NCBI GenBank assembly: GCA_046349955.1
Contig: JAXMBI010000004.1
Location: forward strand, 28,237 to 92,236
Length of the DNA stretch: 64,000 nucleotides
Direction of reading: 5' to 3'
Source: Pirellulales bacterium
Lineage (GTDB): Bacteria > Planctomycetota > Planctomycetia > Pirellulales > JBGAPH01
Positions 11,075 to 55,897 of the stretch are shown one piece after another. The notes beneath the pieces were generated by a model. It made no database searches and had not been told where the DNA came from. It worked only from the letters and a program-made list of their open reading frames with translations. Numbering within the stretch: the first letter of the stretch is position 1; each line of letters starts with the position of its first letter. Position numbers and translations under genes: made by a program.

Positions 11075-11152
11075 GGCGAGCGGCCGGCGAAAAGCCGGCC
11101 GAGATTTTTGCGATTGGCCCTCTCATCAGCCGGCTGACGCCGGCCGCTCGCC
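11075..11152. repeat. Palindromic intergenic element of the GGCGAGCGGCCGGCG family
   Basis: The left arm is GGCGAGCGGCCGGCGAAAAGCCGGC (from 11075). The right arm, AGCCGGCTGACGCCGGCCGCTCGCC (to 11152), is its near-perfect reverse complement. Each arm contains its own GCCGGC-N3/4-GCCGGC hairpin. The architecture matches 55805-55897. Confidence 0.8.
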
Positions 11153-32562: not shown

Positions 32563-32739
32563 TCGGCGAGCGGCGGGTTTTACCCCCGCCGTGCCGCGCG
32601 ACGAGGGAATCGGGGTTCAGGCGCCGCGAGCCGTGATCGATTCGCGAACCCGCCGCACGTTGGGAGTGATCGCAGCTGCCACTCTGAACGAGTTCGTCAC
32701 CGGGGCCCGCCGGCGTGAAGCCGGCGGCTCGCTGAGCCG
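32563..32739. repeat. Diverged inverted pair of ~57-nt hairpin-containing elements related to the GGCGAGCGG family
   Basis: The left arm contains CGGCGAGCGGCGGGTTTTACCCCCGCC (hairpin 32572-32590). The right arm contains CGCCGGC-GTGAA-GCCGGCG-GCTCGCTG (hairpin 32708-32726). Both strands translate to ...AAGFTPA.P.DE..., which shows the inverted symmetry. Confidence 0.6.
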
Positions 32740-51149: not shown

Positions 51150-52346
51150 ATGGCCGCCTCCCTGCCGCTCGATGAGCAGACCGCAATCGATCACCTGCTG
51201 CGCTTTCTCAACGTGGAGGGCGTGAGCGGCGAGGAGCGGGCGATCGCCGAGGCGGTGTCCGACGAGCTGCAGAAGTTCGGCGTTCCCAAGTCGGCGATTC
51301 GCTACGACAAGGTCAACGAGCGAATCCCCCTGCCCACACAGACCGGCAACCTCTTCGTCGATCTGCCGGGGACGAAGCCGGGGCCGCGGCTCGTGTTCTC
51401 GACGCACCTCGACACCGTGCCGCTCTGCGCCGGCGCGAAGCCGCGCCGCGAAGGGGACCGCATTCTCTCGGACGGAACCACGGCCCTCGGCGGCGACAAT
51501 CGCACCGGCTGTGCCGTGCTCGTCTCGTTGGCCGAAACGCTACTCAAACACAAGCTGCCGCACCCGCCGATTACGCTGCTGTTCACTGTGCGCGAAGAGA
51601 GCGGCCTGCAGGGCGCCCGCTACATCGACCCCGCCGACCTGAAGGGCACGGCGATGGGCTTCAACGTCGACGGCAAGTTGCCGGCCGACCTGATCCTGGG
51701 CGCCGTGGGGCAGGAGAGCTTCACGATCGAGATCCGCGGCAAGGCGGCACACGCCGGCGTCGCCCCCGAGAAGGGCATTTCCGCGACGCTCGCCGCCGCA
51801 CTCGCCCTCGAAGAGGTGCATCGGGGCGGCTGGTTCGGCAAGATCGTCAAGGGGGAGAGCCGCGGCACGAGCAACATCGGCGTCTTCGGCGGCAAACCTG
51901 GCAAGCCGGCGGGGGACGCCACGAACGTCGTCACCGACTACGCGTTCCTCAAGGGGGAGGCGCGCAGCTCCGATGCGGCGTTCGCCTCGCAGATCACGGC
52001 GGCCTACCGCGCGGCCTTCGAGAAGGGCGCCGCCGCCGTCAAGGACATCGGCGGCGAGTCGGCCAAATTGAAGTTCGAGGCCCACGTCTCCTACCCGCCG
52101 TTCAAGCTGGCCGAGAGCGACGCGGTGATCGCCCACGCCAAGCGGGCGGCCGAGTCGATCGGCCTTACGCCGACGTGCCACTTCTCGAACGGCGGCCTCG
52201 ACGCCAACTGGCTGGTGGAACACGGCCTGCCGACCGTGACGATCGGCGCCGGGCAGTACGAGATCCACACGGTGAACGAGTACGTGGTGCTGCCGGAATT
52301 CCTGCAAGGCTGCCGACTGGCGGTGGCGCTGGCGACCGTAGTTTAG
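51150..52346 (+). CDS. M20-family metallopeptidase, peptidase T-like
   Basis: FSTHLDTVP, GGDNRTGCAVL and TVREESGLQGA match the metal ligand contexts of M20B/PepT-like enzymes. Confidence 0.75.
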   Translation: MAASLPLDEQTAIDHLLRFLNVEGVSGEERAIAEAVSDELQKFGVPKSAIRYDKVNERIPLPTQTGNLFVDLPGTKPGPRLVFSTHLDTVPLCAGAKPRREGDRILSDGTTALGGDNRTGCAVLVSLAETLLKHKLPHPPITLLFTVREESGLQGARYIDPADLKGTAMGFNVDGKLPADLILGAVGQESFTIEIRGKAAHAGVAPEKGISATLAAALALEEVHRGGWFGKIVKGESRGTSNIGVFGGKPGKPAGDATNVVTDYAFLKGEARSSDAAFASQITAAYRAAFEKGAAAVKDIGGESAKLKFEAHVSYPPFKLAESDAVIAHAKRAAESIGLTPTCHFSNGGLDANWLVEHGLPTVTIGAGQYEIHTVNEYVVLPEFLQGCRLAVALATVV

Positions 52347-52347
52347 T

Positions 52348-52540
52348 TGCTCGCTACGCCCAACGATGCCAGCCACCACAACGGCGAGCGGCCGGCGTGA
52401 GCCGGCTGACCAAACCGGCGTCCACGCCCTCACGCGCAGAATCGGCCAGCTTACGCTGGGCCGCTCGCCCATTGCGGTGCTCGCTACGCCCAACGATGCC
52501 AGCCACCACAACGGCGAGCGGCCGGCGTGAGCCGGCTGAC
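52348..52540 (+). repeat. Tandem ~130-bp structured repeat: one full unit (52348-52477) plus the first 63 nt of a second (52478-52540)
   Basis: The 63 nt at 52478-52540 are identical to 52348-52410. The unit contains the inverted repeats GGCGAGCGGCC (52383-52393) / GGCCGCTCGCC (52459-52469) and the hairpin GCCGGC-GTGA-GCCGGC (52391-52406). Confidence 0.9.
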
Positions 52541-52556
52541 AAAGGCGGTGTTCCCC

Positions 52557-52892
52557 ATGGCCAACCAGCACGTTAAGGCCGCCACCAAGACAATCGTCGA
52601 ACTCTTGGTTCTTGGAGACTATGAGCAGGTCGAACGTTTGACCGAGGGAAGGCGCATGGATAGGCAAGCCATCTATGGAGCGATTCGCGACTATGGTCGG
52701 ACGCTCGTTCCCGTTCCGGACCAAGCGTACGACTCACTCGACATTGTGCCGATCAAGTCCGCGCGATCCGCGTGGTCCGTGCGGCTTCATCTCTGGACAG
52801 CGGAAGAGGGTGAGTCAGATCTGTCCGTGGAACTGACGATCCTCGAGGGAGACGGCCTAACTGTCGAACTCGACGATATCCACGTGCTCTGA
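52557..52892 (+). CDS. Hypothetical 111-aa cytoplasmic protein encoded on a lower-GC insert (possibly immunity-protein-like)
   Basis: The ATG at 52557 opens the frame; the listed GTG at 52527 lies inside the repeat. The product is MANQHVKAATKTIVELLVLGDYEQVERL...WSVRLHLWTAEEGESDLSVELTILEGDGLTVELDDIHVL. By hand count it has 193 G+C in 336 nt (57%), compared with 78/120 (65%) in the last 120 nt I counted of the upstream gene. Confidence 0.55.
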   Translation: MANQHVKAATKTIVELLVLGDYEQVERLTEGRRMDRQAIYGAIRDYGRTLVPVPDQAYDSLDIVPIKSARSAWSVRLHLWTAEEGESDLSVELTILEGDGLTVELDDIHVL

Positions 52893-52935
52893 ACCGCTTG
52901 CTGCAGAGCACAGCCCGACTCGCGCATCCCTCCTT

Positions 52936-53189
52936 CGGCGAGCGGCCGGCGTCAGCCGGCTGACCAAAACCCGCGTCCGCGCCCTCACGCGCAGAGTCGG
53001 CCAGCTTACGCTGGGCCGCTCGCCCCCTTGCGTGCTCGCCACGCCCAACGTTGCCAGCCACCACAACGGCGAGCGGCCGGCGTTAGCCGGCTGACCAAAC
53101 CCGCGTCCGCGCCCTCACGCGCAGAATCGGCCAGCTTACGCTGGGCCGCTCGCCCCCCGGCGTTGCTCGCCACTCCCGACGTTGCCAGC
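52936..53189 (+). repeat. Continuation of the ~130-bp repeat array: the 3' 97 nt of a unit (52936-53032), a full unit (53033-53163) and a 26-nt partial unit (53164-53189)
   Basis: These align directly to the 52348-52477 unit with a few substitutions. The hairpin loop reads GTCA in the first of these copies and GTTA in the second. Confidence 0.9.
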
Positions 53190-53205
53190 TGAGTGCTTGC
53201 CAGCT

Positions 53206-54282
53206 CTACAGCGCCGCCACCACCAAATCCCCCACCTCGCGCGTCCCGTAACCCATCTTGCCGGCCGACTGGCTCTTCATCTTCGTGCCGGTCACGACCT
53301 CGATCGCCTTCATGATGCGGGCGGCGGCCTTGGGCTGGCCCGAGTGCTCGAGCAGCATAGCGGCCGCGCCGATCGCCGCGATCGGGTTGATCACGTTCTG
53401 GCCGGTGTACTTGGGGGCGCTCCCTCCCATCGGCTCGAACATGCTCACGCCGCCGGGATCGGGGTTGATGTTCCCACCGGAGGCCACGCCCAGGCCGCCC
53501 TGCAGCATGGCGGCCAGGTCGGTGATGATGTCGCCGAACATGTTCGTGGTCACGATCACGTCGAAGTATTCCGGCGTCTTCACCATCCACATGCAGCAGG
53601 CGTCGACGTGTTGGTAGTCGGCCTTCACGTCGGGGAATTCCTTGGCCACCTCTTGGAACGTGCGCCACCACAGGTCGTGGCCATAGGTCAGCACGTTCGT
53701 TTTGGCCACGAGCGTCAGCATCTTCTTGGGGCTGTTCCGCTTCCGCGTGAAGTCGAAGGCCCAGCGAATGCAGCGCTCGCAGCCCTTGCGAGTGAAAATG
53801 GCCGTTTGCGTGGCGACTTCGTCTTGGGTGTGCTTCTTGAGAAAGCCGCCGACGCCGCAGTACAGGTCTTCCGTGTTCTCGCGGACCACCACGAAGTCGA
53901 TGTCGGCCGGCTTCTTGTCCGCCAGCGGCGTTTCCACCCCCGCGAAGAGCTTCACTGGCCGCAGGTTGATGTATTGGTCGAGCTGGAACCGCAGCTCGAG
54001 CAGCAGCCCCTTCTCGAGCACGCCAGGCGGCACCTGCGGGTGGCCGACCGCGCCCAGGTAAATGGCGTCGAACTTACGCAGTTCGTCGACCGCGCCGGCC
54101 GGCAGCGTTTCGCCCGTCTTCAGGTAGCGTTCGCCGCCGAAGTCGAACTCGGTGAGCTCGTAGCGGAAGTTCTCGAGCGCCGACACGGCCTTGAGCACCT
54201 TGAGCCCTTCGGCGGTGACTTCGGGACCCGTGCCATCGCCTGGGAGAACGGCAATCTTGATCGGAGCGGCGCTGGCGGCCAT
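53206..54282 (-). CDS. Isocitrate/isopropylmalate dehydrogenase family enzyme (3-isopropylmalate dehydrogenase or tartrate/D-malate dehydrogenase-like)
   Basis: The ATG at 54282 gives MAASAAPIKIAVLPGDGTGPEV. The motifs DQYINLRPVK, VVVRENTEDLY and NMFGDIITDLAA are present. At 358 aa it is LeuB-sized, but the sequence also resembles the TtuC subgroup. Confidence 0.85.
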   Translation of the reverse strand: MAASAAPIKIAVLPGDGTGPEVTAEGLKVLKAVSALENFRYELTEFDFGGERYLKTGETLPAGAVDELRKFDAIYLGAVGHPQVPPGVLEKGLLLELRFQLDQYINLRPVKLFAGVETPLADKKPADIDFVVVRENTEDLYCGVGGFLKKHTQDEVATQTAIFTRKGCERCIRWAFDFTRKRNSPKKMLTLVAKTNVLTYGHDLWWRTFQEVAKEFPDVKADYQHVDACCMWMVKTPEYFDVIVTTNMFGDIITDLAAMLQGGLGVASGGNINPDPGGVSMFEPMGGSAPKYTGQNVINPIAAIGAAAMLLEHSGQPKAAARIMKAIEVVTGTKMKSQSAGKMGYGTREVGDLVVAAL

Positions 54283-54446
54283 CGGCAATCGGTCTCGTAC
54301 GGGGAGGGGTTGGGGAAAGAGCCGATTGTAGCCCGCTGCCGGAGGGAGCGGAATGCCCGGTCCGCCGGCTCCCCGCTCGCGAGCAGTTCGAGGCCTTTTA
54401 CCAGGTCGGCAAAGTCCTCGGGTCCTGGCAGCCCCGACTGCGAAAG

Positions 54447-55804: not shown

Positions 55805-55897
55805 GGCGAGCGGCCCGGCGTAAGCCGGCCGAGGGAACGGCGACGACTAAAGCACAGCGATGGCGATTCATCAGCCGGCTTACGCCGGCCGCTCGCC
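55805..55897. repeat. Palindromic intergenic element of the GGCGAGCGGCC(C)GGCG family
   Basis: GGCGAGCGGCCCGGCGTAAGCCGGC (from 55805) and GCCGGCTTACGCCGGCCGCTCGCC (to 55897) are reverse complements apart from one indel. They are separated by about 44 nt. The layout matches 11075-11152. Confidence 0.8.

Follow-up and report, generated by a model that had tools for sequence, protein, structure and literature searches.

Repetitive extragenic palindromic sequences (REPs), as known from E. coli and Pseudomonas fluorescens, are short GC-rich hairpins with a conserved unpaired foot. They are scattered over the genome in more than 100 copies outside genes, usually close to gene 3' ends and mainly as inverted doublets (REPINs). 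They go together with a small HUH/Y1 transposase (REP-associated tyrosine transposase, RAYT or TnpA-REP), whose single gene has its own REP on either side in inverted copies; among relatives, changes in the transposase go with changes in the REP sequence. To our knowledge, REPs have been little described in Planctomycetota. TnpA-Y1 proteins of class 3, which occur mainly in Planctomycetes and Acidobacteria, are accompanied by 'atypical' REP-like structures; they are ~178 aa long and have the motifs NHVH, W[TA] and YV[VI][AENY]EQ and an extended conserved N-terminus (Quentin et al. 2018, PMC6006769, Table 1). The subject of this paper is a palindromic repeat in a 64,000-nt stretch of a Pirellulales genome (the window, G000:C4:28237-92236; genome G000, 6.89 Mb, 66% GC), where it lies between the genes of an M20-family peptidase and of an isocitrate/isopropylmalate dehydrogenase (IPMDH) family protein. 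This repeat is like the REP/REPIN systems in all the features named above, the flanked transposase gene being found in other genomes. Because a HUH/Y1 transposase (RayT) of other planctomycetes is flanked, in inverted orientation, by the same hairpin, we are highly confident that the repeats are an ordinary selfish REP/REPIN family of non-autonomous elements, which consist of inverted doublets and of linker-joined tandem clusters. The locus is neither a dedicated structured RNA gene nor a CRISPR-like array nor a new class of element. A first-pass annotation of the window had rightly seen a real, structured and dispersed palindromic element; its view that the element could not be placed in a described repeat class does not hold.

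Defined by an iterated nhmmer profile, the family has 146 non-overlapping copies in G000, which occupy 101 sites on at least 39 contigs. Full doublets of ~86-87 nt account for 91 of the copies, and the other 55 are partial, mostly single arms. Tandem clusters are present at 31 of the 101 sites, mostly with a period of ~130-139 nt and with 6 units in the largest. According to BLAST, only positions ~35-122 of the 130-nt unit of our locus are widely repeated. In the alignment the doublet reads GGCGAGCG-GCCRGC-GTNA-GCYGGC-TGAC, a variable spacer of ~28-34 nt, and GTC-GGCCRGC-TTAC-GCYGG-GCCGCTCGCC, which is one hairpin twice, inverted. The hairpin consists of the unpaired 8-nt foot GGCGAGCG, a 6-bp stem and a GTNA loop, and the right arm usually has one bulged 1-nt base. 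The arms are almost invariant; the spacers cannot be aligned between sites. In the window, the 24-nt arm GGCGAGCGGCCGGCGTNAGCCGGC occurs 6 times (0.03 expected). Apart from our locus, two single REPINs that had been recognized earlier were confirmed by arm matches and by the family profile. They lie at 11075-11152 (C4:39312-39388, 24-nt arm at 11129-11152, same place occupied in the sister species) and at 55805-55897 (C4:84042-84133, 24-nt arm at 55874-55897). A supposed diverged copy at 32563-32739 escaped the profile. Its arm resembles that of a sister hairpin family with the same GCGAGCG foot, a GCGGGG/CCCCGC stem and a T..C loop, of which there are 36 copies genome-wide.

Across 198 arms, the fourth stem position is G-C in 123, A-T in 71 and unpaired in 4, and every other stem position is paired in more than 95% of the arms. 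The compensatory evidence for the small hairpins is real but limited to this one position, which could reflect a single ancestral event that split two subfamilies. A G-C arm is combined with an A-T arm in 34 of 48 parsed doublets; only these 48 of 90 full doublets were parseable, since the regular expression used for the tally handled about half of the copies owing to the bulge in the right arm, and the counts are to be taken qualitatively. The loop is GTNA in 184 of the 198 arms, with G, T and A almost fixed and only loop position 3 varying, and the foot is conserved in sequence like three of the four loop bases. At our locus the loops are GTGA, GTGA, GTCA and GTTA, as had been read at first. 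This variation was then taken as a sign that structure rather than sequence is selected, an argument that is weak in view of the conserved foot and loop and the single compensatory position. The outer stem is part of the predicted single-strand folds, with z-scores of -2.0 to -2.8 for the array units and of -5.6 to -7.4 for two single elements. A further pairing that had been suggested, GCGTGAG/CTCACGC, uses the variable spacer and is not kept in the family.

With alternating orientation and recurrent linker motifs in the 31 REP clusters, the family shows the trait that characterizes bacterial interspersed mosaic elements (BIMEs). Like the BIMEs of enterobacteria, the clusters have few linker types, and doublets combine two different arm variants. 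The linkers belong to a few recurrent types (three recurring), which are common to unlinked arrays, and their ends weakly prolong the palindrome. However, the sequences are unrelated to those of BIMEs, and the period of ~130-139 nt is longer. Classical class 2 REPs also differ in that they carry a GT[AG]G tag; here the foot is GGCGAGCG, the 5' tetranucleotide of the other strand is GTCA and the loop is GTNA. Arrays of another kind are found at the loci L052, L056, L066, L084 and L158 of other genomes, where the same REP arm is repeated head-to-tail as a single arm with a period of 31-45 nt, unlike the ~134-nt doublet-plus-linker arrays of G000. The exact hairpin motif was in no paper found by a literature search, and it is not in Table S1 of Quentin et al. 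(2018, PMC6006769).

The evidence that carries our assignment comes from other planctomycete genomes. When the exact 24-mer was scanned in one genome per species, at least 115 stretches were obtained from many metagenome-assembled genomes of planctomycetes. A tblastn search of 115 REP-bearing loci of other genomes with the RAYTs of G000 itself gave one unlinked match only. The association between REP and transposase emerged only once all Y1_Tnp loci of eight genomes rich in the REP had been collected and their flanks scanned for the hairpin. In four other planctomycete genomes, a HUH/Y1 RayT of ~175 aa has the hairpin on either side in inverted orientation; the hairpin is exact at two loci and has a one-base variant of the foot at the other two. 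The check for a RAYT-like protein encoded elsewhere, which the first-pass annotation had recommended, thus gave the answer. At locus L146 (genome G439), the protein has 178 aa and the motifs SHVHLVV, WWTE and YVLHRQ. A full REPIN precedes its ATG by 10 nt. At the other end, the last codons and the stop overlap with a REP, which is followed by four more arms. The RayT of L149 is 64% identical to that of L146 and has the same exact REP on its flanks. Those of L157 and L158, which were found via the protein database, are 68% and 65% identical to L146 and are flanked by arrays of GGCGAACG-GCCGGC-GTSA-GCCGGC. At L147, L148 and L160-162, where the identity is 46-59%, the flanking sequence is GCGAGCG-GGGGGC-GTNA-GCCCCC, with foot and loop unaltered but both sides of the stem different. 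Such relatives point to the parts of the hairpin that the enzyme reads. At L146, L157 and L158, the RayT gene is located between a gene with a PSD1 domain and a DUF1501 gene; a conserved genomic location is typical of RAYTs. In several RayTs (L146:1807-1824; P0009 and others), the C-terminal GERPA and the stop are encoded by the flanking REP, the TAA stop being that of a GTAA loop.

The RayT family scores 33 bits with Pfam Y1_Tnp (PF01797, cut-off 23) and 38 with NCBIfam REP_Tyr_transpos, which is under the cut-off of 80. It has more than 600 relatives, for which the JGI name is 'REP element-mobilizing transposase RayT'. The HUH histidines and the tyrosine are invariant in 13 of 13 aligned members, which are 170-200 aa long and have the motifs N/SHVH, WW[TA] and YV.(.).Q and a conserved N-terminus. 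Judged by the description in Table 1 of PMC6006769 only, they are like class 3 TnpA-Y1 in the length of ~178 aa, in the motifs NHVH, W[TA] and YV..Q and in the extended N-terminus. However, the gap between Y and Q is 3 residues in most of our members and 4 in class 3. On the side of the hairpin, the Solibacter structures listed in that paper, with a GTCA loop and a CCGAGC start, are close to the GCGAGC...GTCA found here, but the class 3 foot CnGA fits only loosely.

The genome under study does not contain this transposase. Searches of G000 and of its congener G001 (the sister species), by tblastn and also in six frames, gave no close homologue of the cognate RayT; the best matches, with E values of 0.006 and 0.03, belong to other Y1 classes. 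CGTC-tagged REPs likewise have no flanked transposase in their host genome (Di Nocera et al. 2013, PMC3733652); here the cognate transposase exists in other genomes, and the tag differs. The four Y1_Tnp genes of G000 (L001-L004, at C9:196403-196741, C6:260000-260341, C2:126091-126426 and C7:246917-247150) are each flanked by their own, different hairpins, some of which are classical GTAG REPs. Several REP systems therefore exist side by side in G000. The REP around the C7 gene is GTAGCCTGCACTCTCCGAGTGCGG, and that around the C6 gene is CCAGGGGC-GCTA-GCCCCTGG. A small family of 8 copies, GCGAGCG-GGGGAC-GATA-GTCCCC, adjoins the C9 gene; in G001 it lies on both sides of a transposase remnant (L142). 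Among the genes of G000 that are bracketed by nearby copies of the studied REP, translations revealed no transposase; they are PEP-CTERM-like, alanine dehydrogenase-like, oxidoreductase and transporter-like genes. A lost RayT was also sought between the best PSD1-DUF1501 gene pairs of G000, where other inserted genes are present instead. In the two pairs that most resemble the RayT-bearing pair of other genomes, the gaps are unusually long, with ~980 nt (C3:292757-293734) and ~765 nt (C22:97660-98425). The C3 gap holds a hypothetical gene of ~200 aa with another repeat (TTAACCGCGGAGACGCGGAGG...) on its flanks, and the C22 gap holds a pair of genes whose translations resemble a toxin-antitoxin system. 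Insertions may recur at the intergenic position between PSD1 and DUF1501 genes. A very distant relative of the class-3-like RayT (TTYGTWLRGDERGW ... LWTEGY ... RYI; tblastn E=0.27) is found at C1:113877-114281 within a 312-aa open frame, with none of the studied REPs on its flanks.

Most sites of the family are common to both species. With queries made of joined flanks, 13 single sites of G000 could be assessed, and no fewer than 10 of them were seen to be occupied at the same place in G001, the flanks being mostly 87-98% identical. Arms with the exact motif number 116 in G000 and 65 in G001. Apart from this pair, the exact motif was present in just one of 39 genomes of the order, and among the 40 order members sampled it is abundant only in this genus. 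The family has a patchy distribution, as expected for a selfish element and its transposase. We also considered an ancient element conserved throughout the phylum and rejected it, since a single genome in an even sample of 400 from the phylum has the motif, and among the 39 order members only the one already mentioned.

At our locus, the peptidase gene (PepT-like, 51150-52346, forward strand, stop codon at 52344-52346; from the open reading frame list; Pfam Peptidase_M20, E=6e-16, and M20_dimer) and the convergent IPMDH-family gene (53206-54288, reverse strand; Pfam Iso_dh, E=4e-93) enclose an intergenic gap of 859 nt. The first-pass annotation saw almost all of this gap as repeat, which is wrong: the repeat share is 447 nt only. 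The remainder includes 395 nt (52541-52935) which according to BLAST occur once in the genome and which contain an overlooked protein-coding gene. Because of this unique DNA, the locus is made up of two repeat clusters that bracket a gene, rather than of one array. The boundaries given for the individual copies were correct (52348-52477, 52478-52540, 52936-53032, 53033-53163 and a stub at 53164-53189), as were the outer stem GGCGAGCGGCC (52383-52393) / GGCCGCTCGCC (52459-52469) and the inner hairpin GCCGGC-GTGA-GCCGGC (52391-52406).

All features of the gap lie on the forward strand. Downstream of the peptidase stop codon, the left-hand cluster begins with a 35-nt linker (copy 1, TGCTCGCTACGCCCAACGATGCCAGCCACCACAAC, 52348-52382), in place of which G001 has unrelated sequence. 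It is followed by REPIN 1 (52383-52469), a full inverted doublet whose orthologous place is occupied in G001. Its left arm is GGCGAGCG-GCCGGC-GTGA-GCCGGC-TGAC, its spacer has ~31 nt, and its right arm is GGCCAGC-TTAC-GCTGG-GCCGCTCGCC. The second linker (52470-52512, 43 nt), the ends of which prolong the palindrome imperfectly (ATTGCGGTG / CACCACAAC), leads to a solitary left REP arm. This half REPIN (52513-52540, positions 1-41 of the profile model) is also present in G001 and ends 16 nt 5' of the start codon of the overlooked gene. The gene (52557-52892) encodes 111 aa that match Pfam DUF7668 over the whole profile (PF24705, E=1.5e-23, 83.5 bits, profile positions 1-100 of 100). Behind its stop, 44 nt of unique DNA that are absent in G001 (52893-52936) precede the right-hand cluster. 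Tandem Repeats Finder assigns this cluster (52936-53189) a period of 130 with 93% matches. It comprises REPIN 3 (52937-53024, left loop GTCA), of which the first 28 nt repeat the solitary arm, linker copy 3 (53025-53067), REPIN 4 (53068-53154, left loop GTTA, from the family profile and fold) and a truncated linker copy 4 (53155-53189), which is part of the piece missing in G001.

The DUF7668 gene has a GC content of 57.7% (0.68 at third codon positions, GC3), compared with 65-68% in the adjoining genes, and is therefore probably of foreign origin and horizontally acquired. It is small, looks unannotated, and stands between two convergent genes of housekeeping type; it is single-copy in G000 and has been kept in G001. 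In G001, the left cluster with the same 1.5-unit layout is present as well, and the right-hand cluster is absent. The distance from the DUF7668 stop to the IPMDH-family stop is 11 nt in G001 and 313 nt in G000. The missing piece, from ~52893 to ~53193, is bounded in G000 by GCTTGC at 52897-52902 and 53195-53200, which fits either a deletion in G001 mediated by the short repeat or an insertion in G000, the direction not being polarised.

By analogy to TnpA of IS200/IS605 and to TnpA-REP of E. coli, RayT would recognize the folded single-stranded hairpin with its foot and would cut and rejoin the DNA beside it. Such cutting and rejoining would move REP-bounded pieces in trans. In the BIME-like tandem clusters, a ~44-nt linker joins the doublets to one another. 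As RayT is absent from G000 and most sites are common to the sister species, the copies of G000 would be inherited, old orphans, which now change only via local duplication, deletion and recombination. The right-hand cluster may be one such local change. The gap between the two convergent genes presumably tolerates insertions; the low-GC DUF7668 gene between the clusters is located there as well.

Several points weigh against a purely selfish REP/REPIN family. No transposase in G000 is flanked by the studied REP, so that the link rests on other genomes and mobilisation here is unsupported. The element has no GT[AG]G tag, and the activity of the RayT clade on the hairpin is assumed by analogy. 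The period of ~134 nt and the linker types that recur in different arrays are not explained in detail. Finally, the arms are uniform despite wholly different spacers, which could mean that they are under selection for a host function. By a rough estimate, neutral decay since the species split would leave ~59% of the arms perfect.

The gene context of the copies, which also speaks for the REP/REPIN family, was derived from a crude GC3-based gene caller (4648 genes), and copies called 'in gene' are mostly artefacts of that caller. The 82 assessable sites comprise 35 between convergent, 38 between co-directional and 9 between divergent genes, where 15, 52 and 15 were expected (chi-square p=9e-8), which amounts to a 2.3-fold enrichment between convergent genes. 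Stop codons are at a median distance of 42 nt from the copies, start codons at one of 153 nt. Together with the positions kept between two species and arms that are far more uniform than the spacers, this would suit a co-option by the host, in which the repeats would serve as 3'-end hairpins that work without a U-tract, either stabilising mRNA or attenuating transcription between convergent genes. REPs of E. coli do stabilise upstream mRNA, and such a role may add to a REP origin. However, purifying selection against harmful insertions would leave the same positions at gene 3' ends. Orientation with respect to transcription is unbiased, the elements in co-directional gaps giving an about even tally, and within the repeats of the region there are neither T-tracts nor terminator-like sites, the sole terminator-like site lying outside them. 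The sister species does without the right-hand cluster, and the patchy distribution in the phylum suits a selfish element. We thus regard host co-option as unlikely. A more specific form of it states that in this genus the REP family has survived the loss of its transposase, that host selection keeps the hairpins at the ends of convergent units, and that the ~134-nt unit of doublet and linker amplifies and disperses without RayT. If true, it would explain the near-identical arms, the common period and linker types in unlinked arrays, and the sites conserved between species; we give it a rather small chance.

The first-pass annotation favoured a dedicated structured non-coding RNA gene or gene array, selected for RNA structure. 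Stable predicted folds, with z-scores down to -7.4 for single elements, and the one compensatory stem pair agree with it. However, the palindrome already exists in the DNA, elements are found either way round with respect to genes, the ~146 copies have variable spacers, and the same hairpin flanks transposase genes elsewhere. An Rfam scan of 51500-54000 at E<=1 gave no known family, only two chance-level matches (E=0.39 and 0.99) far under the gathering scores, and no promoter-like site was found in the region of the locus. An RNA gene is thus very improbable. Much the same must be said of a miniature inverted-repeat transposable element (MITE) derived from a DDE-type insertion sequence (IS), which would be small and multi-copy and for which the 11-nt outer stem, GGCGAGCGGCC / GGCCGCTCGCC, would be the terminal inverted repeats. 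There is no consistent target-site duplication in the flanks of 34 single copies, single arms stand alone 55 times, and arrays of single arms flank a Y1 rather than a DDE transposase. Between nearby copies, no IS with such ends was seen that could be the parent, and a MITE is hardly credible. Although short-read assemblies tend to collapse or expand repeats, there is next to no chance that the tandem structure is an assembly artefact, since the array units are only 91-96% identical to each other and differ at several positions, the 1.5-unit layout of the left cluster is the same in the independently assembled G001, and ~30 other clusters share the architecture. A CRISPR array (clustered regularly interspaced short palindromic repeats) was ruled out by the 130-nt unit, by the lack of unique spacers between the copies and by the dispersal of the element over 101 sites.

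For the selfish REP/REPIN family that we propose, the mildly new points are a planctomycete REP family paired with its cognate RayT clade and a genus without that transposase. The main value of the analysis lies in annotation: it takes a candidate 'novel structured RNA array' off the list and adds a missed DUF7668 gene. It also defines for Planctomycetota a REP family, with foot GGCGAGCG, stem GCCRGC and loop GTNA, together with the RayT clade that goes with it. The orphan state of the copies in this genus would be a small natural case of how REPs behave after their transposase has been lost.

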